36,739 bases of DNA from a virus (IMGVR_UViG_3300031588_000005:1-36739); one strand, 5' to 3'. Counted from the first letter of the stretch, positions 253-36,739 are shown. Numbers and translations are program-made. Notes: generated by a model not told the origin, from the sequence alone.

Positions 253-290
253 TGGTCTCGCAGTGAAAATGACCACAAACTGCACTTACC
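253..290 (+). ncRNA. Putative pseudoknot/hairpin, family B, ending at ACTTACC
   Basis: TGGTC(253-257)/GACCA(271-275) and GCAGT(260-264)/ACTGC(279-283), immediately followed by the motif. Confidence 0.45.
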
Positions 291-536
291 ATCCATATCT
301 ACCAAACCTCCCTCCTAATAACGCAAGAGGGAATTGGGTGTGGATCCTTCACCAGCCTCTCTACGGTCAAATGAGAGGTCTATGATTACCAAGCGGAATC
401 CTGAGCAAGAACGCGGTAATTATCTATAAAAGGCTCACTTACCGTCGCCAGAATCCGCCTAGGACTCCTCTCTTATACCAGACAGATGAGAATGCGGGCT
501 TAACGCCCTCCTTAATTGGAGGTGGCGGCACTTACC
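291..536 (+). ncRNA. Two structured non-coding modules delimited by ACTTACC (291-443 and 444-536)
   Basis: CCCTC/GAGGG, CCTCTC/GAGAGG and ATTACC/GGTAAT stems, with TGAGC(402-406)/GCTCA(433-437) cross-pairing; second module closed by GTCGCC/GGCGGC; no credible ORF. Confidence 0.4.
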
Positions 537-628
537 GTTCCAGAGATGTAATGATCGGCAACGAGAATGAGTGTGCTGACCCCCACTCATTTCAGACCAA
601 AGAATTTGCCCTGGAACACTTACTTACC

Positions 629-733
629 ATGTACACACATACATGTTCATGCGGAATAGAATACGATGATGATTTGCCAATGCACCCAGAATGGAAAATC
701 TGCGAGTGCGGCACAATGAATTGCAGAATCTAA
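629..733 (+). CDS. Zn-ribbon microprotein (34 aa)
   Basis: ACTTACC-ATG at 622-631; CSC...CEC motifs. Confidence 0.65.
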   Translation: MYTHTCSCGIEYDDDLPMHPEWKICECGTMNCRI

Positions 734-763
734 ATCCGCATCTTATGGGTTGGGCAAACCCTA

Positions 764-1038
764 ATTGCCAAACACCAAAAATAATGCGTCTAGCAGTACG
801 CGCAAAACTGCACTTACCATGCGAAATTTTTCCAGAAAGCAAATTAGGCAGATGATTGAGGTTGAATACCCAGAAGAAAAGAAAAAGGGATTCATCAATA
901 TGCAGACTATTATTTGGTCGGTATATTTAGGCCGCGATAATATGGACTAAAACGCAAATATACAGTATGGGCAACACTTAGATTGCCAAACACCAAAAAT
1001 AATGCGTCTAGCAGTACGCGCAAACTGCACTTACCATG
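764..1038 (+). repeat. Direct repeat of ~57 bp (764-821 and 982-1038) containing a family B element and the motif
   Basis: ATTGCCAAACACCAAAAATAATGCGTCTAGCAGTACGCGCAAA(A)CTGCACTTACCATG in both copies. Confidence 0.95.
819..950 (+). CDS. Hypothetical microprotein (43 aa)
   Basis: ACTTACC-ATG at 812-821. Confidence 0.6.
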   Translation: MRNFSRKQIRQMIEVEYPEEKKKGFINMQTIIWSVYLGRDNMD

Positions 1039-1455
1039 TAAAAAACGCTCACACAGCCAAGAGTGTGTGACAAGTCCTCGATCAGAGTTCGAGGAGTGTT
1101 GATACAGCATAACTACACCGACCCTGCAGAGGTGTTCGGAGCAAGCGAAACCTTGCAACGCTCGAAAGAGCAACAACAATAAATAATGGTCGGATGAATG
1201 GAAATCCGATAATTGAGTCCAGTCCTCTACCAGAGGATAAAATGATGCCATTAGGCCGAAAGGCCACAAAATGCTCGAAAGAGCAACAGGGGTAGAAATG
1301 GATAGATGACTAAAAATCATCAATCCGGTTACTACCTATGAGCCGTAAAAATTCAAAGGCAAGTCATGGACAATCTGCAGATTGAAAATGACTGAGTGAC
1401 GACTGTAAAAGGTCGGCGTCAATGATAAGCTCAATTTCCACTACTCAACGGAACT
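1036..1455 (+). ncRNA. Putative large structured non-coding RNA
   Basis: More than 10 consecutive hairpins, including GAAA tetraloops (GCTC-GAAA-GAGC twice, GGCC-GAAA-GGCC), TCCTCGA/TCGAGGA, ACACC/GGTGT, TCGGAT/ATCCGA, TCCTCT/AGAGGA, AGTCAT/ATGACT; no + strand ORF of 60 aa or more; bounded by motif copies. Confidence 0.55.
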
Positions 1456-1475
1456 ACTGACCATAAATACTTATC

Positions 1476-1699
1476 ATAAAATATTGTGTGGAATAAGTCA
1501 GACCATTAAAGGGTGAACCTATAATTGGTTTGGTGAAGCATCTAAGCAGCAATTTTTACTGCGGTTCAGCGAACATGCCGAGAAAAAACTTTGACGAACA
1601 AAGGATCCCAAGTCTGGTCGTGCTAACCCTCGACTTAGGACAAAAGGATGGTGGACTCTCAATGACACCGCAGAGAGCAAGTATGCCACAATCTTGCTT
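1476..1699 (+). ncRNA. Putative structured non-coding module
   Basis: Hairpins GCAG/CTGC, CTTTG/CAAAG, AAGTC/GACTT, CTCTC/GAGAG, GCAAG/CTTGC; flanked by tandem motif pairs. Confidence 0.4.
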
Positions 1700-1719
1700 A
1701 CTTATCATAAATACTTACC

Positions 1720-3453
1720 ATGCACATGAAAAATGCAAGCGTAGAAATCTACGCTGATATGACAAAAGATGAAATAATGACTGAATTTACCCTAAAGGGT
1801 CTAAAAGCAGATTTGGCTGCTATTAGCAAATTGCCTCAATTTGAGCAAATTGCAAATGCAACGCCAAAGAATGCTAAAAGCCCTATCGTAGATACATTAA
1901 AAATTATTTCACAAGAAATAAAAAACAACGCAAAGCAAAACGACGCAACAGACCAGTTTATCGAGTGTGTAAGATCTTTTGAACATGCAAAATCAGAAAA
2001 TGACGGAACTTTCTTTATAGGAGATTCTAAAGTTGAGATTTTATTGTATGGGAAAGAGCACGCACAATCAAAGAAACAAGTCTTTGCAGACCTAGAAGAA
2101 AATGAAAGAACTGAGAAAACAGGTCCTAATGGAACATTTAATGTCCCTAATAAAGAAGTGTGGGTTTCCCACGCTCTTATAGAGGCAGCAGATACACAAG
2201 GAGCTACAACGCAAGAAGGCCGAAATATGGTGGCTGGCAATTTATTGTCAGGTTCCATGTCATTCGGTAATATAGGAATAGATCCTAGCGTTCATGCCTT
2301 GATGTCCAATTTACTATCTGATGACGGCAAGACAGCCAAAACATCAGGATTAATCAGCCGAGATGATGCTGATTCATTAGTAAAAGACCTCCAGTTACTA
2401 GCACCAGCGGGCACAAGTGTGCGCTACATCGCAGAAACAGACGACAAAGAATTCGCGTCTATGATTATTTATGATGTAACGCCACAATATACCCCTGGTA
2501 TGTTCAAAGTCGGCAAAGGCGTACCTCGTATAACTGAGAGAAACCCAACTGCACAAGAATTACTTGGCATTAACTTGGATCAATACCTGAGCCAAGAGAA
2601 TCAAAAGTACGCAGACATATTGGTATATCGCGTCAACGCACTGAGTAGGTTTAACCTAATCAGACTTGCAACTCCGTATGGACAAACCATACTACCTAAG
2701 ACTGGAAACCTTAAAGATTTACAAATCAATCACGGAATAGATCGAGATGACCCGAACTTGGGTACACTGAAACTCGCTCGAAATCCGAGCAAGAACGCTC
2801 GCTTCCTTGATTGGGAAATTGTGTCTCAACTGCTAGAAATGAAAACCAAAGTTCTACAAAAACTAGGTTATAGCATAGAAGTTCACAGTTCAATCTTCAT
2901 GAGAGGTTCGAAAGCAGAAAAGTCTTGTGATAAGAGAGGACGAAAAACTCTTGAACCACGGGATGTATCTGATATTAAGAAGGGAGCCAAGTTGGCAGAA
3001 CTTTACTTTCAACAAGTTTTAGGACAAGGCAAAGCAGCTTCGATTATGAATATCTTAGCTTCTGAGTCTAGGACAGCCCAACACGGCTATGAGCCAACTG
3101 GGGTATTATCCAACATCGCTTACCTACTAAAAATAGGCGATAAAGCAAATAAAAAGGATAAGTCCACTGTAAAAGCATTGCAACAATTAAAGGATAATAG
3201 CGTATTCTGGCCTTTCGGCTTTGAGAACGCCCAACTATCTGGAAAGAGCAATGGTTCTAAAGGAGAGCAAAAAGTCGGCTTAAACGGAAAAATTGGGAGA
3301 AATAGGTCTCAATTGACTCCGGCAATGGTGACAATCGGTGGCAGAACAGTCATCGGAGTAAAAGCAGTGCCTCTAACCAAGGATGCTTACGATCACCGAG
3401 CCAAGCAAAGCAAAAAACCAACACGCAAGCCTGCTCGAAAACAGCAGCGTTGA
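1720..3453 (+). CDS. Hypothetical protein (577 aa, basic C-terminal tail)
   Basis: Long ORF after ACTTACC; no family recognised. Confidence 0.9.
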   Translation: MHMKNASVEIYADMTKDEIMTEFTLKGLKADLAAISKLPQFEQIANATPKNAKSPIVDTLKIISQEIKNNAKQNDATDQFIECVRSFEHAKSENDGTFFIGDSKVEILLYGKEHAQSKKQVFADLEENERTEKTGPNGTFNVPNKEVWVSHALIEAADTQGATTQEGRNMVAGNLLSGSMSFGNIGIDPSVHALMSNLLSDDGKTAKTSGLISRDDADSLVKDLQLLAPAGTSVRYIAETDDKEFASMIIYDVTPQYTPGMFKVGKGVPRITERNPTAQELLGINLDQYLSQENQKYADILVYRVNALSRFNLIRLATPYGQTILPKTGNLKDLQINHGIDRDDPNLGTLKLARNPSKNARFLDWEIVSQLLEMKTKVLQKLGYSIEVHSSIFMRGSKAEKSCDKRGRKTLEPRDVSDIKKGAKLAELYFQQVLGQGKAASIMNILASESRTAQHGYEPTGVLSNIAYLLKIGDKANKKDKSTVKALQQLKDNSVFWPFGFENAQLSGKSNGSKGEQKVGLNGKIGRNRSQLTPAMVTIGGRTVIGVKAVPLTKDAYDHRAKQSKKPTRKPARKQQR

Positions 3454-3454
3454 G

Positions 3455-3932
3455 CCCTTCGGGGCAACTAGACACAATGACCCACCGATACGGGATAGGT
3501 GGCGAGTGAACAAATCCCGTAACTGACCATGCAAGATAAACGCACGAATAATGAACCAATGAACGAAAGAAAACTAATAATAAAGACCGGTTACGGAACT
3601 GCATGGAAGGAAAATGACGAAATAAAAGTCAAGTTCGCTTCCATGTCCGGAATACCAACAGTCTACAATATTACGGATCTAGATTTATCAGCCGCCATAG
3701 GTTACAACTTTCCCTTGACTATTCGTCAAGTGTTAGGAAGTTGGGGACCATCTAATGAACTTAAAATGTTTTTAGAAAAAAGAATGGCCAAGTGAATAAT
3801 GAACGAGGTTTACGCCCCTTCGGGGCAACTAGACACAATGACCCACCGATACGGGATAGGTGGCGAGTGAACAAATCCCGTAACTGACCATGCAAGATAA
3901 ATGCACGAATAATGAACCAATAATGAACGAAA
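3455..3932 (+). repeat. Direct repeat of ~114 bp (3455-3568 and 3816-3932): UUCG hairpin + family A pseudoknot + motif + first ~13 codons
   Basis: CCCTTCGGGGCAACTAGACACAATGACCCACCGATACGGGATAGGTGGCGAGTGAACAAATCCCGTAACTGACCATGCAAGATAAA identical in both copies. Confidence 0.97.
3529..3795 (+). CDS. Hypothetical protein
   Basis: Motif-led ORF, 88 aa; N-terminus shared with next gene. Confidence 0.75.
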   Translation: MQDKRTNNEPMNERKLIIKTGYGTAWKENDEIKVKFASMSGIPTVYNITDLDLSAAIGYNFPLTIRQVLGSWGPSNELKMFLEKRMAK

Positions 3933-4936
3933 TTGCAAGCCAAAATGGCCGCATCTCTTCTCTAACTGAAAGAGAAGCCGCCATAAGGAAACGCGCTATG
4001 AAAATAAGTAAGCGTAATTCCGGTGCAGGCAAAAGTGCTCTAAGAAGAGCATCTTACCTAAAAATATTGATTTCGATAATAAAGCCATACTTGGATAACC
4101 TCACTACCGAAGAAGAAGATGTAGTAATACTGAATAAAAATGCTAAGATGCTGACACCGAATGTGTTAGTACAAAAAATTAACTATGCATTGAATTTGTT
4201 TTATGACGCATCTAATGACGGTCATGTGACTGAAAAAGTTATACAATTGGCAAAATGCAAAGTAGAATGGAACGAAGAGATCCCTACAAATAAACAAGGG
4301 AAACTCGATGGAAGATTCAAGCCAGTACGATTCACAGCAACCACGATGGTTGTCAAATCCGAAGCCCCGCCCAAAGCGGAAGCCATGGCTACTTCTACGA
4401 GAACGCCGCAAGTACCCTATAATTGGGTAGATGCTATGCAGAGAAGGTCCAAGAAATTAGAATCTTCTCGTACACGCAGAGCAAAGGCTCGTTTGAATGA
4501 CGAAAAACTGCATTTGAAAAAAGTTACTAAAGAGAAAGGTTGCCACATCAGGAAAAGGAATTCTGAAATCATGGGCACCCGTAGAGGCAAGTGTGAACTT
4601 TGTGAATCAATCCTAGAAGGAAATGTTAAACATTCTAATAGGGTTAAAAGATCACTTTCGCACGCCCCTCCTCAAAGAAGAACAAGATTTTATCGGAAAA
4701 AACAGCAACCACGCATCGAATCAGATGTTTGCAAAAACGATTTATCAAGCAATCCAGGTGACTGGGACAAATCGGAGAAGCAATGGCTCTCAAACAACAT
4801 AAAAATAAATCAAGAAGCCGCAGCAGAATTGCTCAAGAAAGGGGAACAACACCTTTCTGAGATAATCTCCAAGAATATGACCCAGAAAGTAAGAGAAAAG
4901 TCAAATGTTGACTACCTTGTACTGGAAGCCGAATAA
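3890..4936 (+). CDS. Hypothetical basic protein (348 aa, one CxxC)
   Basis: Motif-led long ORF, K/R rich. Confidence 0.85.
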   Translation: MQDKCTNNEPIMNEIASQNGRISSLTEREAAIRKRAMKISKRNSGAGKSALRRASYLKILISIIKPYLDNLTTEEEDVVILNKNAKMLTPNVLVQKINYALNLFYDASNDGHVTEKVIQLAKCKVEWNEEIPTNKQGKLDGRFKPVRFTATTMVVKSEAPPKAEAMATSTRTPQVPYNWVDAMQRRSKKLESSRTRRAKARLNDEKLHLKKVTKEKGCHIRKRNSEIMGTRRGKCELCESILEGNVKHSNRVKRSLSHAPPQRRTRFYRKKQQPRIESDVCKNDLSSNPGDWDKSEKQWLSNNIKINQEAAAELLKKGEQHLSEIISKNMTQKVREKSNVDYLVLEAE

Positions 4937-5019
4937 TCAAATTCGTTAGCCTTAATTGGCAAAAAGCAAGACCCTTCGGGGCAGTGGAAGGCACACCACT
5001 ACCTATGTGCCTACTTACC

Positions 5020-5442
5020 ATGACATTGCACATATTGTTAATGCCCCGACCAGGGCATCAACCAAACAAGAATGACGGAACACCAATTGACTATCTCGTT
5101 TTCGACGAGAGTAAGGTCAAGGACCCCGTTCATCCTAACAAGTTAGATCCAAAAAATCCGGATTCTTACTATGCTAAAGCAACAAAAAGGATTCAATCAA
5201 TTTATGAGGAAGATCCAACCATATTTCACGATTTACAAGTAGCTCTTTACGCATCAGGCCTTACTTCTGCCCTATTCGGGACAGTAAACGCCTGTGTCAA
5301 ACTAGGGCTAAATCTAAGCGTAGGAATATGGGACAGAGAAACAGAACAATACAATTTTCAGCCATGGGAACACAAAAATTCCAAATTATTTGTTGAAAAA
5401 ATTGTTCCGCTTTCTGCACTTAATAAAATAATTTACAAGTGA
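5020..5442 (+). CDS. Phage-type hypothetical protein
   Basis: ACTTACC-ATG at 5013-5022; LYASGLT...WDRETEQY pattern resembles common phage hypotheticals. Confidence 0.8.
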   Translation: MTLHILLMPRPGHQPNKNDGTPIDYLVFDESKVKDPVHPNKLDPKNPDSYYAKATKRIQSIYEEDPTIFHDLQVALYASGLTSALFGTVNACVKLGLNLSVGIWDRETEQYNFQPWEHKNSKLFVEKIVPLSALNKIIYK

Positions 5443-5451
5443 TACTGACCA

Positions 5452-5724
5452 ATGTCGAATCGAAAAGCAGCAACAGCAGCAACAGACATAAGTACCAAGT
5501 CAAGGTACTTCAAAAAACTAGAACAAGACATTAAATTTGGTAATGAATACCAAAAGAAAAGGGCATCAAAGAATGTAAAGGAACAGATTCTATTATGGGA
5601 ACTAGACCAAAGCAGTCCTTATGATGATCCAATAACAAATGATGAAAAATACTATTCTGCCAATTGGGCAGATAGTTACCACGGCACAATCAATCTCGAA
5701 TTATGGGATGAATTGAGCCAATGA
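5452..5724 (+). CDS. Hypothetical protein
   Basis: ACTGACC-A-ATG; 90 aa. Confidence 0.75.
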   Translation: MSNRKAATAATDISTKSRYFKKLEQDIKFGNEYQKKRASKNVKEQILLWELDQSSPYDDPITNDEKYYSANWADSYHGTINLELWDELSQ

Positions 5725-5734
5725 CTAAAATAAA

Positions 5735-5772
5735 GCCGAGGCACCAATATGGGTGTCTCGGCACTTTTTTTT
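5735..5772 (+). terminator. Stem-loop plus U-tract terminator
   Basis: GCCGAGGCACC/GGTGTCTCGGC 11-bp stem followed by AC and T8. Confidence 0.75.
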
Positions 5773-5790
5773 GGTCAATCCGAACTTATC

Positions 5791-6147
5791 ATGAGTACAG
5801 CAATACATCATGCGATGAGTTCAGTTAAGAAATGGGGCGGAAAGCCGGAAGATTATATGTCCATACACGAATGGTTCGACCAATCAAAAGAACATGGATG
5901 GAATTTCACCCATAGATCGATACTACATCACACACTAGGAATCACAATCTGCGAACAAGTCTTTGGCTCAATGTGGACTGTGAAAAGCACAGGAAAAGAA
6001 GTACCAACAAGATGGATAGGAGAACAGCATCTTATGGAAGATTTCGGATTTGTTCCGACTCCAGCAGATTGGATGAAAACTATCAAACCAGCAGATTGGA
6101 TGATACGAGGCGGTAAAACCGCCAAAGAATTAGGCCTTGAAGCCTAA
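5791..6147 (+). CDS. DUF6915-like protein
   Basis: ACTTATC-ATG; HAMSSVKKWGG..EDY..IHEWFDQSK, HR..LHH..G, IGEQH..EDFG.VPT..DW signature. Confidence 0.8.
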   Translation: MSTAIHHAMSSVKKWGGKPEDYMSIHEWFDQSKEHGWNFTHRSILHHTLGITICEQVFGSMWTVKSTGKEVPTRWIGEQHLMEDFGFVPTPADWMKTIKPADWMIRGGKTAKELGLEA

Positions 6148-6155
6148 TACTGACC

Positions 6156-6380
6156 ATGACAGATATTGAAAAATATAAAAAACACTTAGGAAAAAAAGTA
6201 GAATGGGTTGTAGACTACGGAGACGATCTACCTAATGATATATTCATTATACATTCTATCCTTTGGGCAGGAGATGTGGGTACTTTCACAGACGGACCGT
6301 TTGAAGAGCATATGTTCCTAAACGAATGCGGCGACAGATGGATGCCCCTTGATTATGTGTTATCACACTTAATAGAGTGA
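6156..6380 (+). CDS. Hypothetical protein
   Basis: Motif-led ORF. Confidence 0.8.
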   Translation: MTDIEKYKKHLGKKVEWVVDYGDDLPNDIFIIHSILWAGDVGTFTDGPFEEHMFLNECGDRWMPLDYVLSHLIE

Positions 6381-6395
6381 TTTCACCTACTGACC

Positions 6396-6713
6396 ATGAT
6401 AAAATTATCAGAGATTCCCATACAATGCGAAGTATGGGTATGTGAAAGATTAACGCCTGACGGCGGAGTATGCGAAAAATGCGTCGACGCTACAATGAAT
6501 AGCGGCGCAAACAATACTTGTGCAAATGATGAATGCGATATTCATTTCATGTGCGACAATTGCGGTGAAAAAGCAATTGTTGGTTACATGGGTGGTGAAG
6601 GTTCAGCATTCCTTTGTTGCGAAGATTGTTGGGAAGAAGTTAGTATGCTTAGTCCCTCAGACCGCGATTACCAAAGCGAACAAAAACAAGATTACTGCGA
6701 ACATTGCAGATAA
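6396..6713 (+). CDS. Cys-rich Zn-finger protein
   Basis: Motif-led; multiple CxxC. Confidence 0.8.
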   Translation: MIKLSEIPIQCEVWVCERLTPDGGVCEKCVDATMNSGANNTCANDECDIHFMCDNCGEKAIVGYMGGEGSAFLCCEDCWEEVSMLSPSDRDYQSEQKQDYCEHCR

Positions 6714-6719
6714 CTGACC

Positions 6720-7055
6720 ATGAGTATAAAAAAATTAGACCCAGCAAAAGTTTGGGTCGTAGCAGAAAACCAATTGTTTGGATGGTGTGCTTGTGATGTT
6801 ATTGACGGCCTCCTACGCACATACGCCACTCAAGAGGAAGCGCAGAAGGAAGCAGAGGGAGTAATCGATGAACTACACACACCACACACACCATACGATG
6901 ATGAATCATGGGGTGCAATTCTACTAGAAGATGCCATCATAGGTGATAATGTAGATTTCATCATTTTTCCTTACGGAAGTTGGAAACCCTACTTACATTT
7001 CATTGTAAGTATAAAGGAATATAGGGATGAATTTCCTAATCAAAAATATGATTAA
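6720..7055 (+). CDS. Hypothetical protein
   Basis: Motif-led ORF. Confidence 0.8.
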   Translation: MSIKKLDPAKVWVVAENQLFGWCACDVIDGLLRTYATQEEAQKEAEGVIDELHTPHTPYDDESWGAILLEDAIIGDNVDFIIFPYGSWKPYLHFIVSIKEYRDEFPNQKYD

Positions 7056-7064
7056 ATACTGACC

Positions 7065-11846: not shown

Positions 11847-12101
11847 ATGACAGAAAAAACATACGGCCACAAAGGCCTACACAAACTGTATGGAATATCA
11901 GCAGGTGTGAAAATTGAAATCACCGTTGAACAAATCATCTCCGACATAAACAAAGGATTAGGATTCGCAGATGACGAATACTACTTCTTAACTGAAGAGG
12001 AGAGGGACAATTACTTGAAAGACGAGATATGTTCACACTTAAATTATAGCGATACTATGATAGGTATGGTTTGTAATGACTGTGGACTAATAGAAACATA
12101 A
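11847..12101 (+). CDS. Hypothetical protein (C-terminal Zn ribbon)
   Basis: Motif ATG; CSH...CNDCG. Confidence 0.8.
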   Translation: MTEKTYGHKGLHKLYGISAGVKIEITVEQIISDINKGLGFADDEYYFLTEEERDNYLKDEICSHLNYSDTMIGMVCNDCGLIET

Positions 12102-12111
12102 GGGTGATTAA

Positions 12112-12372
12112 ATGAGCAGATACACGATACAAGTTGAAAACGACGATTACTTTGATGTGATTTACGGATTTGATACTGGAGGATTATTGGGCGAAAGAAG
12201 CCCCACCTTTGGTTTTTTTCTACAGGCTTGGCTAATCGTAGATGGAGTTACGGACTTGACCTATAACAAAACAGGTGGCAAATCAGCAATAATTGAATCT
12301 CCGTTTTGGGATGAAATTGTAAAGTCAAATCCAGACCACAGCATGAAGATTGCACTTGACTTGCCTTTTTAG
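12112..12372 (+). CDS. Hypothetical protein
   Basis: No motif; GGGTGA Shine-Dalgarno-like site upstream. Confidence 0.8.
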   Translation: MSRYTIQVENDDYFDVIYGFDTGGLLGERSPTFGFFLQAWLIVDGVTDLTYNKTGGKSAIIESPFWDEIVKSNPDHSMKIALDLPF

Positions 12373-15498: not shown

Positions 15499-15510
15499 GC
15501 ACTGACCATA

Positions 15511-16881
15511 ATGAATGAAAACAATTCAATTCAAGAAAGAAATGGCAAAGAACCATCCTCTGAACATAGTTTCCCAGAAGTGGAAACAATAAATGAATGT
15601 GACGAATGTGGATCTCTTTTGAAAGTAAAGCACAACCACGACATACCTCACGACTATAGTGAGGGCGTATGTGGGATGTATTTCTGCGAAGAATTCTATG
15701 AACACCCATCAGGTGACGAAATGGAAATATGCGGATGTGAATTACTTGAAGATGGAGAGATGTGCAACTGCGGGTGCTATGAAGTATCCTGCCAAGCAAC
15801 AGGAATTTCACAATTCAGAAATGAGGGTGAAAACTATAAAACATGGGAAGAAGCGTGTAAATGCTTAAACTTCATGGACGGAGATGATTTGCCTATTACG
15901 GAGAAGCTAGAACAAATGTTCTGCAAACTATGTAATAAAGAATTAACTGATGCTCCCTCAAGAGAAAGGGGCATTGGAAACACATGTTTCAAAAAATTCT
16001 CAATGAAAGTGGTCGCAATAAAGTCAGAGCGTATTGATGATAATGATATATTATTATTATTGGAAAAGTTTGACTTAGTGCATCACAGCAAAGGATATTT
16101 TGAAACCGACGAGAGAGATATCCAATCGGATGAAATATACTATCCGATAGATTCTCCACCCTATTATCAAAAATTAATTGCAGATGAACCGATAGTTCAG
16201 GAGATTGATTTAGATGCCCTAAGAAATTTTGGCTCCAAATGGGGAATAATATGGAATACAGACTTAGACGAAAGCGAATGGACTTCAGATGATTGTTTAA
16301 CAAAAACGCATCAAATTATTGAAGAACCAGACTGGACAATTATGTTCCAGGGTTCTTTCGAAGGAAAAACACTTAGAAATGGGGAGTATGATAACCCTAT
16401 GTATCAGAGTTTTTATGATTCAATATCCAACCTAAGCGGCGACCCTTCTTTACAAGGGCAATTGGGACATAATTTATACCTGCTAATCTATGAGGTTGGT
16501 GGGGATTGGGCAGCAGATACATTCATTAAAATGTTTAGTGAAGTAACGAGGGCTGCTTATGCAGATCAACCAAATTGGTTCTTAGGACACAGTATTGAAG
16601 ATTATTACGAAGCGAAGGCAGAAGGAGCACTACGAGTAGAAGGAGAGATTAATCCCGTCTACGGAATGTGTGTTCTCAATCAAGGATATAAGTTGTCTTC
16701 TGAAAACCCGTATAAAGCGGCGTATGAACTCCACGGAGAACATACTGATGAAGGATTAGCCTTCAAACTTTTTATAGAAGAATGCGGCGAGATGTTTTGG
16801 GGTAGTAGGAGTAAAGCTATCCCCTTAATTACTGATACATTACTCAGAGAGATGAATTCTCACAATGTTGAGAAAGAGTAG
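15511..16881 (+). CDS. Cys-rich acidic protein with DUF6011-like Zn finger
   Basis: CKLCNKELTDAPSRERGIGNTC; preceded by ACTGACCATA-ATG. Confidence 0.8.
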   Translation: MNENNSIQERNGKEPSSEHSFPEVETINECDECGSLLKVKHNHDIPHDYSEGVCGMYFCEEFYEHPSGDEMEICGCELLEDGEMCNCGCYEVSCQATGISQFRNEGENYKTWEEACKCLNFMDGDDLPITEKLEQMFCKLCNKELTDAPSRERGIGNTCFKKFSMKVVAIKSERIDDNDILLLLEKFDLVHHSKGYFETDERDIQSDEIYYPIDSPPYYQKLIADEPIVQEIDLDALRNFGSKWGIIWNTDLDESEWTSDDCLTKTHQIIEEPDWTIMFQGSFEGKTLRNGEYDNPMYQSFYDSISNLSGDPSLQGQLGHNLYLLIYEVGGDWAADTFIKMFSEVTRAAYADQPNWFLGHSIEDYYEAKAEGALRVEGEINPVYGMCVLNQGYKLSSENPYKAAYELHGEHTDEGLAFKLFIEECGEMFWGSRSKAIPLITDTLLREMNSHNVEKE

Positions 16882-29855: not shown

Positions 29856-30119
29856 ATGCATGTACTATATGTAAAACCACCAAGAAAGCCAAAAATGGCT
29901 CTTATCGTGGAAAAAAAATCATATAAATTCGCTAATGACATAATTTCAACGATGGCAGTAATGAAGCCAACTTGGAAATGCGAATTAGTCAAAGCAGAAA
30001 AATTTCCTGGTAACGAGGGCATAATTCCATTAGAAGTAATGAAGCAAGCAATAATAAAGCCGCTTGTGCCATTTGATAGAGAATCATTCGCCGAAGCAAT
30101 TTTATCGGCTCTCCAGTGA
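29856..30119 (+). CDS. Hypothetical protein
   Basis: Start moved to motif ATG. Confidence 0.8.
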   Translation: MHVLYVKPPRKPKMALIVEKKSYKFANDIISTMAVMKPTWKCELVKAEKFPGNEGIIPLEVMKQAIIKPLVPFDRESFAEAILSALQ

Positions 30120-30127
30120 AACTGACC

Positions 30128-30670
30128 ATGACAACAGAACAAAAAATACTATTCTATGAAGGAATGGATTGGAAAGAACTACGAGAAAGTGACATAATTG
30201 CTAATTTAGCAGAAAAAGTAGCAATTGTTATGGGACCAATCCTATACAAAGACTGCTTGATGCTAGGAATAAGGCCTCAAGAGGCCTTTGCAGAAGAATA
30301 TCTATCCAGTTACATGCATAGAATAGAGATAATAGACGAGTGGGAAGGAAAACAAGAATTTCTTTCCCCTATGGGAAGTAATCCGTTAAGTGATTTTACA
30401 CTCAACGGCAGTAAACCTTCAATGAAGAAGGAATTAAGATACGCACTTTCTAAAGATGGAGAACACTTAGAATTTAGAAGATACTGTTTATTAAACGATG
30501 AAGAAAAGACACAGTACGAAATCAAGACGAAAGTCTTTTCGAGAACAGAAATAGTTACAATCTTAAGATTGAATTTGTTCTTTAGAAGTCTTTCTGCGAA
30601 AGATCAAACAAAATGGCTCGATGCCCAAATCGAAGAATACGAACACCTAAGTGGTGAAAATATTGAATAG
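30128..30670 (+). CDS. Hypothetical protein
   Basis: Start moved to motif ATG. Confidence 0.8.
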   Translation: MTTEQKILFYEGMDWKELRESDIIANLAEKVAIVMGPILYKDCLMLGIRPQEAFAEEYLSSYMHRIEIIDEWEGKQEFLSPMGSNPLSDFTLNGSKPSMKKELRYALSKDGEHLEFRRYCLLNDEEKTQYEIKTKVFSRTEIVTILRLNLFFRSLSAKDQTKWLDAQIEEYEHLSGENIE

Positions 30671-31019
30671 ATGGACCGTAGCCACGACAAAAACAAGCAA
30701 AATAGATCTTAGAATCATCCAAGGAAATTATCCCTGGATGATAGAATCGGAACTAGGCGACAACATCGCCCTTGTCAAATCGCAAAGCAAGTCCAAGACT
30801 GGATTTGCCAAAGCAGGAGAACTGAATGAAAGGGATGAGGGTTTCGCAATAGCAGAACTTATCTCAGCAGCACCAGAGATGTATGCAGCAATTATAAAAT
30901 TGGTTTCCAGATTTAACAAGATAAATTACCTACACTCTGAGGATAAGGAAGCAATTGAAAATGCTAAAAAAACTCTAAGAAAGGCCAAGCCTAATACTCT
31001 TATTAATTGGGACAATTGA
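30651..31019 (+). CDS. Phage hypothetical (LIAAAP type)
   Basis: PW...AELISAAPEMY; no motif; start uncertain (TTG 30663 after GGTGA possible). Confidence 0.7.
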   Translation: MVKILNRWTVATTKTSKIDLRIIQGNYPWMIESELGDNIALVKSQSKSKTGFAKAGELNERDEGFAIAELISAAPEMYAAIIKLVSRFNKINYLHSEDKEAIENAKKTLRKAKPNTLINWDN

Positions 31020-31030
31020 CCTGACTGACC

Positions 31031-31324
31031 ATGAAACTAAAAATTCAAAATCCAAACACCCTCAAAATAGAGGAACAAGCCAGGCGTTACCGTAAGCTAC
31101 ACCGAATGGTGTGGAAGAGGTTCAGCCTAATATTGGATGGAAAAGAAGATTTCGACTATCTTGCGAGAAAGATAGCACAAGAAGTGACTGACGAACTTCT
31201 GGATCCTATGATTCGGAAAGTAACCAACCCCGAAATAGCCTGGGATGCAGATGTTACTAGAAAGGGTTATACTATCACAGTAAAACCGAAGGAAGGCCGA
31301 ATGGAGCCAATACTAGGTGAATAA
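31031..31324 (+). CDS. Hypothetical protein
   Basis: Motif-led ORF. Confidence 0.8.
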   Translation: MKLKIQNPNTLKIEEQARRYRKLHRMVWKRFSLILDGKEDFDYLARKIAQEVTDELLDPMIRKVTNPEIAWDADVTRKGYTITVKPKEGRMEPILGE

Positions 31325-31325
31325 G

Positions 31326-31424
31326 ATGACAATTAGCTCAGAATGTGAATGCGATGAACCTCATCCTCGATACAGAGGAAGTCATCCAGTCTCATGTAAT
31401 AGATGCTGCGGAGTGATACATTGA
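31326..31424 (+). CDS. Zn-binding microprotein (32 aa)
   Basis: AGGTGA SD; CEC...CNRC. Confidence 0.6.
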   Translation: MTISSECECDEPHPRYRGSHPVSCNRCCGVIH

Positions 31425-31537
31425 GTCCAAGCAGATATTATACTTGCCCAAAATGTGGCAAACCTATAGAAGCAAATTTCGCGGTAAATTATCCCGATGA
31501 ATGCTATCAAGAAGGGTGCCCTAACAAGGTAAACTGA
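31421..31537 (+). CDS. Zn-ribbon microprotein (38 aa, TTG start)
   Basis: GGAGTGA SD; CPKCG...CYQEGC; stop lies inside the next motif. Confidence 0.6.
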   Translation: MSPSRYYTCPKCGKPIEANFAVNYPDECYQEGCPNKVN

Positions 31538-31539
31538 CC

Positions 31540-31953
31540 ATGACAAAGCAAAAAGCCAGTGATGTTATAATGAGGTTAAGAAGAACCATTGAAGCCAAAA
31601 TCAATGATGGCTCTCTTGATAACATCCATGAAGGACTGCAGGTAAAATTAGGAAACGCCAGTTACACAGGTGACAGCATATTTCCTATAACCTTCAAAAT
31701 TGAAGTATCTGCAACAAACGATGACGGAACAATTGAGACAAAAGAGGTTAAAGATTTCAAGACAAATGCTATCCATTATGGATTGTCACCAGACGATCTA
31801 GGAAAGGAATTCACGCAGAACGACCATACCTTCAAGATCTCAGGATTAAACGGAAAAAGGAGAAAGTATCCAATTTCCGTTACAAGAAATGACGGGAAGA
31901 AATTCAAATTCACCGCAGAACAAATTAAGCAGCTCTTACAGAGGGCTGCTTAA
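31540..31953 (+). CDS. Conserved phage hypothetical
   Basis: YGLSPDDLGKEF...G....RKYP motif. Confidence 0.85.
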   Translation: MTKQKASDVIMRLRRTIEAKINDGSLDNIHEGLQVKLGNASYTGDSIFPITFKIEVSATNDDGTIETKEVKDFKTNAIHYGLSPDDLGKEFTQNDHTFKISGLNGKRRKYPISVTRNDGKKFKFTAEQIKQLLQRAA

Positions 31954-31962
31954 CTACTGACC

Positions 31963-32160
31963 ATGACAGATATAGAAAAAATCAAAGGGACAATACATAT
32001 GTCCAATGGAAAAGAAATAAAATTTTACATAGATGAACAAATGTGGGAACAATGGAATCAAAACGGCGCTTATCTAGTCCAAGCAGGAACATCAAAACTG
32101 CTAGAAATGATGCAGAAAGCATTCGCAGCCTTCCAATTAGAAGGCCCAGAACAAGATTAA
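31963..32160 (+). CDS. Hypothetical protein
   Basis: Motif-led ORF. Confidence 0.78.
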   Translation: MTDIEKIKGTIHMSNGKEIKFYIDEQMWEQWNQNGAYLVQAGTSKLLEMMQKAFAAFQLEGPEQD

Positions 32161-32184
32161 ATGCAACTAGAATTGCCACTGACC

Positions 32185-32499
32185 ATGACAGAACATAGAA
32201 AAATTGACGAGGCACGATACCTCGGACGCACACCTACTAGCAAATGGCAAGAAATAGTTTGGGCCGATGGATTGAAAGCAATCTATCTGGACGATGATAC
32301 ACCTGCTAGTGACACAGATAGGCAACTTATGGCAGACGCACCTTTGTTTTTAGATAAATTAGAGGCTTTGCATGGGTTAATTTGCCTTCTTGATGAAATG
32401 CTGGATCACGATACCATGACATTCCATGCTAGGGAAGAACTAGGGGAACCCCGCGAGTTATGGGATTCGCTCTTCTATGAAAGCAAACTCTCCGATTAG
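32185..32499 (+). CDS. Phage hypothetical (LMADAP type)
   Basis: Y.G.TP..KW...LMADAP; paralog of 8596-8961. Confidence 0.78.
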   Translation: MTEHRKIDEARYLGRTPTSKWQEIVWADGLKAIYLDDDTPASDTDRQLMADAPLFLDKLEALHGLICLLDEMLDHDTMTFHAREELGEPRELWDSLFYESKLSD

Positions 32500-32510
32500 G
32501 AGGACTGACC

Positions 32511-32789
32511 ATGACAAAAATAGAAAATTTAAGAAATTTCATCCAAGATATAAACAGATGGAATAACATAACAGGAGGGACCGACATTACGATCCCTCTT
32601 AATGAAAATACGGCAAAGGACATCGCCAATCATTTAGGAAGCAGACTTTCACCAGAAAATCTTGCGTGTGACGGCGAGTTATCTTACAGTCAAATAAAAT
32701 CTAAATTAAAATATTTGAATAATATTGAGTTAGAGTTTCACAAACACTGTGATTCAGTTGGAATAACTAGACAAGAGATATTGTACTAA
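32511..32789 (+). CDS. Conserved phage hypothetical
   Basis: LSPENLACDGE motif. Confidence 0.82.
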   Translation: MTKIENLRNFIQDINRWNNITGGTDITIPLNENTAKDIANHLGSRLSPENLACDGELSYSQIKSKLKYLNNIELEFHKHCDSVGITRQEILY

Positions 32790-32798
32790 AAACTGACC

Positions 32799-32963
32799 AT
32801 GACAGAAACTAGAGAGAGAATATGTGAACAATATCAATGTGGAAAACCTTACTTCTATGCACTACCAGAGTTTGGTGATTTGTGTAAGGCATGTTACTTG
32901 AAGATGCACGAAGATGGTAGAGTTAAGACCATATACATCGAAGGTGAACATTATATTGTATAA
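32799..32963 (+). CDS. Zn-finger microprotein (54 aa; not in ORF track)
   Basis: Motif-led; CEQYQC...CKAC. Confidence 0.72.
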   Translation: MTETRERICEQYQCGKPYFYALPEFGDLCKACYLKMHEDGRVKTIYIEGEHYIV

Positions 32964-32973
32964 TGACAAAACC

Positions 32974-33234
32974 ATGACTGAAACAGAGATAGCAGAGAAA
33001 AATAGATCCGAGTTAAAAGTCGGAGATAGAATAAAATCATTTGATTTCGGACGGATTGGGAAGTTTGATTCCTTCATAGTTGGAGTGGTTAAGAAAATAG
33101 CGCCTACCAAATTTTGCGGCTCTGAATGCGACCACATACACTTAGAAGCAGAATACGCAATCCCAGAAAGGGAAGAAATAGCGGGAAGAATGTATTACCC
33201 TCATTTGGGGAATCACATAGAAATCATAGACTGA
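32974..33234 (+). CDS. Hypothetical protein (SH3-like)
   Basis: Degenerate AAAACC-ATGAC start; LKVGDRIKSFDF; stop inside next motif. Confidence 0.72.
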   Translation: MTETEIAEKNRSELKVGDRIKSFDFGRIGKFDSFIVGVVKKIAPTKFCGSECDHIHLEAEYAIPEREEIAGRMYYPHLGNHIEIID

Positions 33235-33236
33235 CC

Positions 33237-33737
33237 ATGACAAGATATTTAGAAACAACCGAAATATCAAAGATGTTGAAAGCAGCGATTCTTTCCATAG
33301 CGCCAGACGCTAAGGTAAGTGTAAGAATAGCCAATACTTACTTTACAAGAAAAAACCAAGAAGTAAAGCAAGTCGATGTCTTTGTCAGAAATTTCGACAG
33401 AATTCCCGTTGAGACACTCAACAGGATAGCACAAGCCTGCAGGGCCCACCAGGGTTCTGATATACTCTGCGGCACACCGCTAAGGAGATGGATTCTAGCA
33501 GGTGAATTAGCACAGATGGATGGAGTCAAAGGGCTCAAAGTTCCATGGAGAGGTTCTCAACAAAGACAATTAGTCATGTACGAACCAGAAGAAGTAATTG
33601 TAGGTTGTGAGCAAGTAAACCTCTACATCGGTAGAGGGACAACAGGCTCATTTACGCTACAAAACGACTTCTCCTACATAGTGGAGAACTATGCTATGTG
33701 CGATGATGGATATGCTATGAAATTAATCCTAGCATAA
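33237..33737 (+). CDS. Hypothetical protein, LPD29-like N-terminus
   Basis: YLETTEISKMLKAAI....PDAKVSVR; family tentative. Confidence 0.6.
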   Translation: MTRYLETTEISKMLKAAILSIAPDAKVSVRIANTYFTRKNQEVKQVDVFVRNFDRIPVETLNRIAQACRAHQGSDILCGTPLRRWILAGELAQMDGVKGLKVPWRGSQQRQLVMYEPEEVIVGCEQVNLYIGRGTTGSFTLQNDFSYIVENYAMCDDGYAMKLILA

Positions 33738-33879
33738 ACTGACCATATATTTATTAACAATCTATTTCAATCTAAGATGTCCGAGGAATACAAATGAAAA
33801 TGACATACGAAGAAGCACTAAAAAAATTGATTGAGAATATAGTAAAAGACCTAAAAAAAGAAGAGGAGTGATACTGACC

Positions 33880-34101
33880 ATGACCATGAAATATGAAAAA
33901 ACGACTTACATAAGTCAAATGGCGAAAGAAGATAAAGAAACAATATACAATGAAGTATTGGCAAGTCTTCAACAATATGTTGATTTTGGACCAAGACTTG
34001 CAACAATGAAGTCAATTGCAAGTTATTTAGAAGAAGCGATGGCAGGTCGAATATGCGATATAGAAGACCTAATTCCTATTTCAAAATACATAGGAGACTA
34101 A
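33880..34101 (+). CDS. Hypothetical protein
   Basis: Start moved to motif ATG. Confidence 0.78.
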   Translation: MTMKYEKTTYISQMAKEDKETIYNEVLASLQQYVDFGPRLATMKSIASYLEEAMAGRICDIEDLIPISKYIGD

Positions 34102-34107
34102 CTGACC

Positions 34108-35481
34108 ATGACAGATACATCAAATAATGATGACAATATAGAAGTTATCGAACTTAGCAACTTGCTAGGGAACGAGACTATGACGGAAAATGATGAAATC
34201 CCAAATTGGGACAGACATACGGCAATCGCTAATTCGATGGCCGAATCAGAAGGAGAAGGTTTTGCCTTCTTAAAGAGAGGTAATAGAGGGTCATCGACCT
34301 GCGACTGGAATTTCCAGCCGCTATCGTTCCCCGTACAAATCAATCTTGAAGGAGAACTGAAAGACGACCTGCTTGCTGCAGGTGTATATGATAACAACAA
34401 TTACGCAGACGGAAAAGAGCGTGAGAATGACATAGAAAGTGGATTTTACACTTCGACAAACACTCAAGGAAGGCCTAACCATATCCTGATCTTGAATCCG
34501 AAGCAATCCTCTGAGAACCAACCTATCGGCGCACCACTTGGAGTGGTGAGTGACAGATATGCGGTGGTTTCCTATACAGATCTATACGCTCCTATCGCAA
34601 GATACTGCGACAGGGCTGGTTGGAGTTGGGCAATTACCTGCTACGACCAAGGAAAGAAGGCTAGAATGGACATAGATGTGACAAATCGTGGTGGCTTCGG
34701 AAACGGAACCAACTACTCAATGACACCAGATGGACAATCACGATCAAAGATTATGAAAGCCGCAGACCTAAGAACTGGAGATTTATACAACTACGGTATA
34801 TCAATCCACAACAGCTTAGACGGATCTGGCAGCCTACGAATGGTAGGAGTCGCTCAGAGAGTCGCATGCCTAAATGGAATGGTTGCTAGCAGCAAAAGAC
34901 ATCTATTTTCGTTAAGACACACCGAAAACTCAATCGGATCTATTGATTGGGATAAGTTTGGTTCTCAAATAGGCGAGATGATAACTGATGTAGAGAATGA
35001 ACTACTCTTTGTAGAGTCTCTACAAAACTATGAAATGACTGACGAAATCTTCGATAAGTTACTTGTTGCTGCTCAACAGCGCAAGATATTGACATTACCG
35101 AAGGCTAACCCAATTCTCAACGAAAGAACTGGGGAAATCATTGACTACGAAATGCATCAAGGACACATGTTCCTGGTTTCTAAAGACGGATGGAAAGATC
35201 CTGATAGAGATTGGGTAAAAGTCAAGGGAGAAGCGGTAGGAACCGCCTTCCATGCATACAATGTTCTGACAGGCGGCTTTACACATAAGCCCGCTTGGGC
35301 AGGGCCAAAAACAGATAATGGCTCAGGAGAGAGAAAAATGGCGGGGCGAACGCTCAATCTAAAATCTCTCGACAAGAGGCTATATGATGTTCACCATCTT
35401 CTAAAGGATGTAGTGGAAGGCCGAGTTAATCTCGAAGCGTTCCCAACATCTAGGGAAGCAATGAACATCACGGTGGCTTAG
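34108..35481 (+). CDS. DUF932/DUF945-like protein
   Basis: LGVVSDRY, NSLDGSGS, RVACLNG, RHT, T.FHAYN..T...TH. Confidence 0.85.
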   Translation: MTDTSNNDDNIEVIELSNLLGNETMTENDEIPNWDRHTAIANSMAESEGEGFAFLKRGNRGSSTCDWNFQPLSFPVQINLEGELKDDLLAAGVYDNNNYADGKERENDIESGFYTSTNTQGRPNHILILNPKQSSENQPIGAPLGVVSDRYAVVSYTDLYAPIARYCDRAGWSWAITCYDQGKKARMDIDVTNRGGFGNGTNYSMTPDGQSRSKIMKAADLRTGDLYNYGISIHNSLDGSGSLRMVGVAQRVACLNGMVASSKRHLFSLRHTENSIGSIDWDKFGSQIGEMITDVENELLFVESLQNYEMTDEIFDKLLVAAQQRKILTLPKANPILNERTGEIIDYEMHQGHMFLVSKDGWKDPDRDWVKVKGEAVGTAFHAYNVLTGGFTHKPAWAGPKTDNGSGERKMAGRTLNLKSLDKRLYDVHHLLKDVVEGRVNLEAFPTSREAMNITVA

Positions 35482-35495
35482 GCCACCAACTGACC

Positions 35496-35720
35496 ATGAC
35501 CAAATTAAATGAATACTATGTGTCAAAAACAATTTTATTGACAGTATCAACCAAAGTCAAAGCCCCCAACTCATTGGAAGCAATTGATAAAGAGAATATT
35601 CCTTGGGACCTAGCAAGGGCAATAAAAGAAGGGTATTTGGAACAAGGTTCTCAATGTACTTTGACAACAAAGGTATGGGATAAAGAATACGAAAACTGCC
35701 TACTAGAACTAGACGGATAA
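35496..35720 (+). CDS. Hypothetical protein
   Basis: Motif-led ORF. Confidence 0.78.
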   Translation: MTKLNEYYVSKTILLTVSTKVKAPNSLEAIDKENIPWDLARAIKEGYLEQGSQCTLTTKVWDKEYENCLLELDG

Positions 35721-35730
35721 CATACTGACC

Positions 35731-36099
35731 ATGACAAAAATTCATATTGAATATGACATAGATAATGCGGCGTTCGACGAAACACCGCTACCAGAGACAA
35801 AAAGAATCTTTGCAGAAATAGTAGATCTTATCGCAAACGGAAATGACGGTGGAAGCATACAAGATATCAACGGAAATACGATTGGTTCTTGGAAAATCCA
35901 CGATTATACAGAACGCTACGAAGAAACCGAAATAGACAGGTTGAATAAGCACATGGATGAAATCTTAGAAGTTAAGGCGAGGCTTCTTGAAGAAAACATA
36001 GAGGATTACGACGCGAATGACATCGACCAACAAGCGGAAAACGATGCTATCTTTGAAGTGTTTTCCAAATACTACTCCGATATTCCATGGCCTGAGTGA
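35731..36099 (+). CDS. Conserved phage hypothetical
   Basis: DNAAF...E..RI...I.DINGNTIG motif. Confidence 0.82.
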   Translation: MTKIHIEYDIDNAAFDETPLPETKRIFAEIVDLIANGNDGGSIQDINGNTIGSWKIHDYTERYEETEIDRLNKHMDEILEVKARLLEENIEDYDANDIDQQAENDAIFEVFSKYYSDIPWPE

Positions 36100-36107
36100 T
36101 ACTGACC

Positions 36108-36410
36108 ATGACAGAAACATCAGATAAAATCTTAGAAGCACAAATGAAGGAGTGCTTTAGCTTCGAACCATCACAACTTGAAGCCCTGTTATTCAGGGCT
36201 CTTAGCAGAGCCTATGCAACAGGGATCAGAGATGAAGAAGCGAATGATGAGGCATACAACGCACTTTGTAGTGCTTCCTACGACGGAAGAAACGAATTAA
36301 GTTCTCATATTTGGGTAGAACCAGAAGAACAAGCAGAAAACAATCCACAAAGAGTGGACTGGGAACCAAGCGGCTCGATTTACGAGGGCGTGGTTACAGA
36401 GATGCGATAA
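36108..36410 (+). CDS. Hypothetical acidic protein
   Basis: Start moved to motif ATG. Confidence 0.78.
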   Translation: MTETSDKILEAQMKECFSFEPSQLEALLFRALSRAYATGIRDEEANDEAYNALCSASYDGRNELSSHIWVEPEEQAENNPQRVDWEPSGSIYEGVVTEMR

Positions 36411-36417
36411 ACTGACC

Positions 36418-36739
36418 ATGACAAGAAAAGAAACTAAAGATATTACAGCAAAACTACCAGAAGGAGTTAGAATAATGATTGACAGGAGTTATGTCGATCT
36501 AGGAGGTTTAGAGTGGAGATTAGGACTCGGGATGGAAGACGGATTTATCGTTCTCACATCAGAAGGGACAAAGGAATTCGAAGAAAGAATTTTCTACACG
36601 CAAAATTTCATCTTAGGTACAGAATTTAGAGTAGGAGAAGAACCAGACGGAGATATTGTACTCAATATCACTGATGAAGATCTTGATGTAGGGGAAGTAA
36701 ACCCCCTCTTTACAGTCGAGGAGCAATACCACAACATAT
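36418..36739 (+). CDS. Hypothetical protein (partial, runs off window)
   Basis: Motif-led; open to the window end. Confidence 0.8.
   Translation, partial: MTRKETKDITAKLPEGVRIMIDRSYVDLGGLEWRLGLGMEDGFIVLTSEGTKEFEERIFYTQNFILGTEFRVGEEPDGDIVLNITDEDLDVGEVNPLFTVEEQYHNI

Follow-up and report, generated by a model that had tools for sequence, protein, structure and literature searches.

The viral stretch IMGVR_UViG_3300031588_000005:1-36739, hereafter the window (36,739 nucleotides, nt, at full length), is the accessory arm of an uncultured marine virus of ~120–130 kb with archaeal-type genes, and most of its genes form an array punctuated by the heptamer ACTGACC, the subject of this work. The array comprises typical viral accessory genes, including two DNA methyltransferases, ArdA, PCNA, an AAA-type ATPase, a PAPS-reductase-like protein and DUF932; these assignments agree with the unrelated genes (methyltransferases, PCNA, ArdA, ATPase) that an earlier sequence-only reading had placed behind the word. 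ACTGACC fused to ATG, ACTGACCATG, occurs in 59 exact copies on the + strand of the window and in none on the − strand, compared with a mean of 0.06 and a largest count of 1 in 100 dinucleotide shuffles. The earlier count of about 59, all on one strand and far under one by chance, was thereby reproduced, and the zero count on the minus strand leaves the standing of the word as a signal intact. Five cellular genomes, examined as background, contain only 3–10 copies of the heptamer each.

Bare ACTGACC is found 63 times on the + strand and never on the − strand, and the next base is A in every copy. ATG follows directly in 59 of these 63. The other four are the copy at 1456, without any fused ATG; that at 33738..33872, where an AT-rich stretch precedes a 25-codon frame; that at 5444..5454, with ATG one base on; and that at 15501..15513, with ATG three bases on. 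At the last of these, RNA pieces of two runs both begin at 15519, and one piece reads through the heptamer from 15489. The variant ACTTACC has eight + strand copies near the array head within 284..5019 (at 284, 437, 530, 622, 812, 1029, 1713 and 5013), five of them with fused ATG, and one further copy lies on the − strand; RNA pieces begin 14–20 nt behind those at 1029 and 1713. Near the array head of relatives, position 4 of the heptamer is variable too. The range of 284 to 36420 proposed earlier for the system holds at its end, but its start is an ACTTACC variant without ATG, the exact copies of ACTGACCATG running from 3522 to 36420. A duplicated 70-nt unit (751-821 and 968-1038) ends each time in ACTTACC-ATG.

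As had been claimed, the word usually follows the upstream stop by a few base pairs (0–9 nt in 44 of 64 motif-led starts), and codon 2 behind it is ACN in 37 of 59 genes. The description 'nearly every gene' needs some correction: in a hand-picked gene set, 62 motif-led starts in 3529-36739 stand against 14 motif-less ones. At 26056-26094 and 28212-28250, 12-codon frames lie directly behind the heptamer with a motif-less gene within 4 nt, and an RNA piece (28230-28889) spans the latter junction together with the following gene. A 15-nt tandem repeat (15037-15224) encodes (EETVV)n within a 274-aa protein.

A 118-kb metagenome contig found by a motif-pair scan contains the window at ~100% identity; ~47 kb of it were read as L042, L037, L028 and L064. 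All mapped runs that contain the element are from seawater, and it is present in DNA runs. The layout recurs in two complete relatives with terminal repeats, G002 (128,784 bp) and G003 (127,570 bp), and in the partial G001, each lineage having its own word: ACTGACC (60 copies) in G002, ACTGAAC (69) in G001, and ACCGCTC (87) with ACCACTC (11) in G003. A more distant sister group comprises G310, G311 and G314; G310 is complete, encodes PolB, MCM and primase, and has an arm of its own that is punctuated with CA(C/T)AG before A. Some G310 units have complementary ends.

RNA ends and gene order at the heptamer

RNA data consisted of assembled contigs of three seawater metatranscriptomes (one year, one habitat), accompanied by one DNA run from another sample. 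They covered positions 1-20000 of the window (three RNA runs and the DNA run) and 25495-36739 with 9 kb beyond (the three RNA runs, on L064). For each run and region the longest eight pieces were counted, in all 48 of 188 RNA pieces, of which four outside the array were left out; such contigs cannot give exact ends, strand or level.

Only 3 of the 44 listed RNA pieces crossed a heptamer (at least 31 nt on each side), compared with 34.1 ± 2.6 by random placement. Since selection of the longest pieces favours crossing, this deficit is conservative. In the DNA control, 7 of 8 pieces crossed, over 19 words (21.1 expected). The RNA 5′ ends lay 0–40 nt behind a heptamer in 32 of the 44 listed pieces (3.6 expected); in 22 of them the 3′ end stood no more than 60 nt ahead of the last heptamer base (5.2 expected). 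Pieces mostly began 11–37 nt behind the word and stopped before it. Two 3′ ends reached base 6 of the heptamer and one 5′ end fell on the G of ATG; between them they confine the boundary to the end of the heptamer. Crossing was seen at a leaky heptamer (36101..36110, crossed in two runs and split in the third) and at 30121..30130 (one piece, 32 nt upstream); shorter overlaps were noted in the duplicated 3522 unit, at 15501 (12 nt) and at 36411 (6 nt). An internal control came from junctions that lack the heptamer. The one at 12101..12112, with a GGTGA word, was crossed by an RNA piece, as were those at 26954-27053, 27285-27295, 30670-30738 and 32963-32974. Of the 13 motif-less array junctions considered, 5 were crossed, the remaining 8 having no listed piece over them; Shine–Dalgarno (SD)-type junctions outside the array were crossed by two RNA pieces. 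The punctuation is real and expressed, and its layout is conserved across the virus family; the RNA data show that the word is the boundary at which RNA pieces end and begin, as the term 'punctuation system' in the sequence-only reading implied. Marking both RNA ends, it would yield mostly leaderless single-gene RNAs, which are presumably translated without a leader.

The contigs of the three RNA runs contained no chimeric joints and no shared loose 5′ end, a leader shorter than ~20 nt being invisible there. In one RNA contig, 34 unrelated bases were joined inside the word at 31027, and no match to them was found in the window or in 276 loci. A 13-base A-rich loose end behind 13589 in one contig may represent a tail, derive from another strain or be chimeric.

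The same word limits the units that move in DNA. In comparison with L041, L090 and L092, each homologous block extends from one word to the next, and the order of blocks differs even where identity is 97–99%. Among units of at least 85% identity whose neighbour differs, identity upstream of the heptamer extends only 0–3 bases in 11 of 11 cases, and at the other end it ceases 0–7 nt behind the next heptamer; the 12 nt before that heptamer are kept (11–12 of 12) in 9 of 12 cases, and shifted by one base in two more. These limits at both unit ends place the crossover inside ACTGACC-ATG-AC, and we infer that recombination uses this common sequence of 10–12 nt as its core, which may also be why codon 2 is biased towards threonine. 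With spacers this short, selection that keeps genes intact has a part in the pattern as well. For 16 adjacent pairs shared across seven relatives, the order is preserved in 5 and lost in 11, the latter including one unit split by an extra word. A serine recombinase is encoded in G001, G002, G003 and G310. Breakpoints between relatives fall at the word, as a gene-cassette array would predict, and the mobile unit in DNA is the same single-gene unit as the RNA unit. The circular motif-to-motif junctions envisaged earlier did not appear: neither circular nor skipped joints were present in the contigs of the three RNA runs and the DNA run.

Surroundings of the word and neighbouring features

The sequence upstream of the word is almost devoid of information: in 252 ACTGACC sites no position between −57 and −12 exceeds 0.06 bits, and the maxima in the other lineages are 0.19 bits (n = 69) and 0.11 bits (n = 87). 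By information content over these 252, 69 and 87 sites there is no canonical archaeal TATA box or B recognition element ~25–35 nt upstream, and the same upstream profiles contain no U-rich terminator or T-rich run before the word. Among copies without ATG, a purine comes next in 42 of 47 within arrays or heads compared with 15 of 22 elsewhere (Fisher p 0.043); a start nucleotide would show such a preference, and the purine is present before non-coding RNAs as well. The word is no more single-stranded than a control (0.56 versus 0.52). End-to-end pairing of mRNA units was considered and rejected (−3.41 versus −3.22 kcal/mol).

Non-coding RNAs are bounded by the word as well. A unit of ~420 nt (1036-1455) runs from ACTTACC (1029) to ACTGACC (1456), spanning 1029..1462 on the + strand, and is matched by an RNA piece at 1052-1454. 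It begins with ATG-TAA, has GNRA hairpins and a core that, by alignment, is kept in G002, and belongs to no Rfam family; RNA contigs from other sources have its core (1185-1250) in common. A conserved GNRA-hairpin non-coding RNA is also found at L264 18860-19370. In G001 there are RNAs with paired terminal stems whose first base follows ACTGAAC directly and whose last base directly precedes ACTTAAC. At 3455..3521 (+ strand), alignment revealed a UUCG hairpin with an H-type pseudoknot-like element at the 3′ end of the upstream RNA; a near-identical copy lies at 3816-3882, a diverged one at ~150–212 and a homologue in G002 at ~114460–114500. Paired base changes were noted in it by eye, and in three of four copies it adjoins the heptamer. 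Upstream of the array, ACTTACC-ATG stands 3 nt behind the CCA of a tRNA-Lys, which is 84–87% like the best of 301 genomes, all of one phylum. A tRNA-like match with a long insertion lies inside the G003 array (L268 12413-12540).

The region upstream of the array in the parent contig contains, beside the tRNA-Lys, repeated units with TATA-like words and a conserved non-coding region. The repeats, found on the stretch that separates the TFB gene from the array head, are 3–5 near-identical units of 90–130 nt, with a GC-rich word before the TATA-like word (L042 reverse strand ~17900–17350, G002 ~115500–116100, G003 ~57500–58000); promoters, an operator array or a replication origin are candidates for their role. 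The second long conserved non-coding region (L042 reverse strand ~17340–16720) has no Rfam match and starts with GGTTGCC in the parent contig and G002 and with GGTTGGCC in G003. On the downstream side, three further motif-led genes and one copy without ATG complete the array.

An archaeal host is probable in view of the archaeal-type genes and because GAGGTGA-type words precede 24 of 64 non-array genes, compared with 7 of 59 motif-led ones. Further genes of G002 specify Rpo5, RusA, glycosyltransferases, a serine recombinase and a group II chaperonin that most resembles archaeal thermosomes, together with tail-fibre-like repeats and a 243-aa ATPase that matches a terminase PHROG; most of its core proteins are without a family, and no HK97 capsid, portal or PolB family match was found in this genome. 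Non-array genes at 48447, 60296, 128426, 69544 and 67547 of G002 are preceded, ~15 nt before ATG, by a different word, CCCC and then T/C-rich and GCG bases, from which the viral TFB may direct late transcription. The small set of array genes common to all four lineages includes those at 8977-10032, 20309-21406, 10837-11727 and 13588-14664 of the window, encoding a cysteine-motif protein (radical-SAM-like, by eye), a PAPS-reductase-like protein, a methyltransferase and an ATPase, which suggests a DNA-modification pathway.

Contrary to the wording of the sequence-only reading, the non-array genes of the virus do not avoid the bare heptamer on either strand, with observed and expected sense-strand counts of 5 and 1.9 in G002, 2 and 2.1 in G003 and 3 and 1.2 in G001; these copies are mostly without a following A. 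Antisense copies number 0 in arrays versus 4.1 expected, in sequences that are related and not independent, and are present outside arrays. Eight loci that are low in GC or short and dense in ACTGACCATG (L071, L069, L049, L040, L086, L024, L016 and L045) have no match to window proteins and are probably unrelated repeats. A scan of IMG/VR for the motif pair of the window gave 12 loci, all attributable to chance, and single-protein scans with DUF932 and RpoA'' gave no match. A scan of genome contigs gave only cellular RpoA among the best 80 loci.

Candidate readers and explanations of the word

The sequence-only reading had pointed to an RNA polymerase, TFB, a recombinase or an endoribonuclease as possible readers. 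Apart from the recombinase of the relatives, the parent contig supplied the first two in part. On L064, a gene for an 885-aa RpoA''-like protein (Pfam Rpb1_5, 9e-23) follows the array on the other strand; its relatives are 17 clusters at 48–100% identity and then archaeal RpoA, and it has an insertion of ~390 aa, at residues 246-636, in common with G002 and G003. L042 carries a divergent TFIIB/TFB homologue upstream of the array (profile of four, PDB E 5e-11), and Rpo5 is present in G001, G002 and G314. The fused full-length RpoA of the sister group (1608–1664 aa) has the catalytic motif (G310 38532-43523, G311 10164-14987, G314 55955-60805); a TFB was not found in G310, and a motif check and a Pfam scan of 30 proteins revealed no RpoB in that lineage. 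Each complete punctuated genome that was examined, G002, G003 and G310, thus has an RpoA or RpoA'' gene. The RpoA'' gene was thinly covered by RNA, which we do not take as evidence on timing. Its predicted fold had a low predicted local distance difference test score (pLDDT 42), with only weak polymerase rows in Foldseek, none at E 0.001 or better, and neither the insertion nor three conserved core proteins had a PDB match. The 577-aa orphan encoded by the first large array gene (1720..3453, + strand) is unlikely to read the word, as it has no homologue in G001 or G003 and is not universal; its predicted fold (pLDDT 40) was of no use, and the Atlas offered no lead for the protein. No ribonuclease family, including PemK/MazF, was found among 79 window and 77 non-array G002 proteins, in frames of at least 70 aa, and the head regions contained no guide RNA complementary to each lineage's own word.

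Two unusual mechanisms, polymerase or nuclease, come into question, the former with a probability just short of even and the latter with a somewhat lower one. As the best reading, which we nevertheless adopt tentatively, we propose a stop and restart at the heptamer by a hybrid RNA polymerase. Host catalytic subunits would carry the viral RpoA''; this enzyme would release its RNA after writing ACUGACC and would begin anew on the purine that follows, so that each message would comprise a single gene and have no leader. We rank this reading first because RpoA or RpoA'' accompanies punctuation in all three complete genomes, because the lineages with A'' only have the 390-aa insertion in common, because a purine stands at +1 even before non-coding RNAs, and because no nuclease or guide was found. 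A hybrid enzyme is proposed since neither the catalytic A' (RpoA') nor the B (RpoB) subunit was found in G001–G003; PF00562 and an A' profile gave no match in the complete G002 and G003, nor was DxDGD present in frames over 150 aa. An archaeal host, subunit swapping, initiation rather than cleavage and leaderless translation are all steps that we infer. The initiator suggested by the sequence-only reading is retained in this proposal insofar as RNA 5′ ends cluster behind the word, but a promoter alone is incomplete, as RNAs also end there.

Several observations weigh against a stop and restart. The missing catalytic subunits are one, and we know of no multisubunit DNA-dependent polymerase that stops and restarts at the same site. 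The zero gap between RNA end and start is the automatic outcome of a cut. Genes outside the array have another upstream word, which RpoA'' and TFB may serve instead. The A'' part of G310 lacks the insertion, and G rather than a pyrimidine stands at −1 there. The purine test is marginal, with copies that are not independent, and the RNA evidence consists of contigs only, 48 of 188 pieces, from one year and habitat. In G002 the first head RNA seems to begin behind a TATA-like word without heptamer, and runs of at least six T on the sense strand are few (2 versus 6.2 expected), both of which fit one long precursor. The last two points lead to dicing, which we regard as a serious possibility, albeit with the chances rather against it: long precursors from few conventional promoters would be cut directly behind the heptamer by a sequence-specific endoribonuclease, viral or virion-borne, so that the upstream RNA would finish with ACUGACC at its 3′ terminus and the following RNA would open with AUG at its 5′ terminus. 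The same RNA boundary data fit, one word giving both ends without a gap; the partial read-through at 36101, 30121, 15501 and 36411 resembles incomplete processing, TATA-like words stand at the array head, and structured 3′ elements adjoin the word. Moreover, seven-base ribonucleases and nuclease-made leaderless mRNAs exist (MazF-hw, MazF-ec; from the accessible part of PMC5408214). The dicing model of the sequence-only reading remains a close rival, but the protein scans and head regions yielded neither a ribonuclease family nor a guide, the bare heptamer is not avoided in non-array sense strands (though mostly without the following A), the word is no more single-stranded than the control, and the purine bias at +1 is not accounted for by cutting.

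The remaining explanations are far less probable. If the heptamer were solely an initiator for a virus-modified polymerase, with 3′ ends arising by decay or collision near the next word, the sharper 5′ ends (32 versus 22 of 44 listed pieces), the purine at +1 and the phiKZ precedent would be accommodated; we consider this improbable, as 3′ ends reach base 6 and rarely pass it, read-through RNAs would cross words whereas 41 of the 44 listed pieces do not, and no U-rich terminator precedes the word. Very improbable, in turn, is a translation or leader-joining signal, by which rRNA would pair with the word or a leader would be added to it by splicing or template switching. It is favoured by the fusion of ATG to 59 of 63 copies, by the 34 bases joined at 31027 and by an exact complement of ACUGACC near position 1137 in the 16S rRNA of three Thermoplasmatota, which have the usual anti-SD at the 3′ end. 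In these three 16S rRNAs, which may not be those of the true host, no complement of ACTGAAC or ACCGCTC exists, and pairing with 16S was rejected as the role of the word for this reason. A pure translation signal, as entertained in the sequence-only reading, is contradicted by words that head and close non-coding RNAs and bound a tRNA, and by the RNA ends that map to them; for leader joining, the RNA contigs offer neither joints nor a shared 5′ end, within the ~20-nt limit given above. Hardly more credible is a recombination core alone, by which RNA contigs would break at the word merely since co-existing strains differ in gene order. Crossovers do lie inside the word and a serine recombinase is at hand, so that this earlier proposal stands as a second role. 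As the sole role it fits poorly, since RNAs end at the word and DNA contigs, albeit of a different sample, cross it. Judged from k-mer assembly, if strain mixing branched the graph, contigs would be expected to carry the word within their ends, with no hole round it; strain mixing thus explains poorly that RNA pieces mostly begin 11–37 nt behind the word and stop before it; circular and skipped joints are also lacking.

Taking the stop-and-restart reading to its full extent, a marine family of archaeal viruses would refit the host polymerase with an RpoA'' bearing the 390-residue insertion, and the word would be terminator and promoter at one base, repeated 60–95 times along an arm of 40–45 kb; it would also be the crossover core for swapping single-gene expression units, and word and polymerase subunit would diverge together between lineages. 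This combination as a whole is rather doubtful. If a polymerase does read the word, the virus would reprogram an archaeal polymerase through exchange of a large core subunit, and stopping and restarting at the same site would occur on DNA; if a nuclease does, it would represent a new family of ribonucleases with seven-base recognition and naturally occurring variants of specificity. Shuffling of accessory genes would find an explanation in that each gene carries its own minimal expression signal together with a crossover core. The three natural word variants with matching protein variants offer a ready test of specificity, and existing RNA samples contain the transcripts.

Comparison with known systems

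Short words at RNA starts are known from viruses with a whole polymerase, the late initiators TAAATG of poxviruses and TAAG of baculoviruses. The late promoter of the phiKZ non-virion RNA polymerase is T-3ATG+1, a very short motif on the start site (PMC7598289, as far as its accessible text goes). Here too a very short word lies on the RNA start without other conserved upstream sequence, 5′ ends cluster behind it, and the virus has multisubunit-polymerase genes. In contrast, those viruses have a whole polymerase of their own and their words are described as starts only, whereas here only A'', TFB and Rpo5 were found, no complete virus-encoded catalytic core was found in the complete G002 and G003, and the word heads nearly every gene of one arm and is also RNA end and DNA crossover point. 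The stop-start junctions of non-segmented negative-strand RNA viruses resemble the array in their short repeated signal, single-gene messages and occasional read-through. They differ in having an RNA template, the L polymerase, separate gene-end U-tract and gene-start signals and poly(A), while the present system has double-stranded DNA and one 7-mer without U-tract.

Polycistrons are processed in T7, whose early RNA is cut by RNase III, and in mitochondria by tRNA punctuation and a dodecamer. MazF-hw is a seven-base cutter and MazF makes leaderless mRNA, according to the accessible part of PMC5408214. In all these cases one site makes a 3′ and a 5′ end, yielding single-gene RNAs with short or no leaders; they rely on structure or few sites, or serve mRNA destruction, whereas here no such nuclease was found among the window and non-array G002 proteins and cleavage is only a candidate. 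Integron arrays likewise have a mobile gene with its downstream boundary and an order shuffled between close relatives, but they depend on attC palindromes and IntI; here spacers are 0–9 nt in 44 of 64 cases, no attC-like palindromes and no tyrosine integrase but only a serine recombinase were found, and the crossover core is itself the RNA boundary word. Coronavirus transcription-regulating sequences and spliced leaders place a common leader on body RNAs; here the contigs of the three RNA runs revealed no joints or shared loose 5′ ends, but they begin 11–37 nt inside, so that a short leader would escape notice.

Magroviruses and other Poseidoniales viruses are alike in being marine, in their size of ~100–140 kb and in archaeal-type chaperonin and glycosyltransferase genes (PMC13108676, PMC11706807 and PMC5332604). 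In G002 no HK97 capsid, portal or PolB family match was found, most of its core proteins having no family and its 243-aa ATPase matching a terminase PHROG. The accessible text of these three sources contains neither polymerase subunits nor such a motif, and neither they nor PMC13465236 describe such a virus. We found no literature on this virus family or on the word, supplements, which may list these genomes, being outside the scope, nor did we find a description of a genome divided into single-gene messages by one seven-base word. Each known system compared departs from this one in a defining feature, or has one that lies beyond the reach of these data. Whichever mechanism applies, a 7-nt word from which dozens of RNAs gain both their ends, with neither promoter nor terminator upstream, matches none of them.

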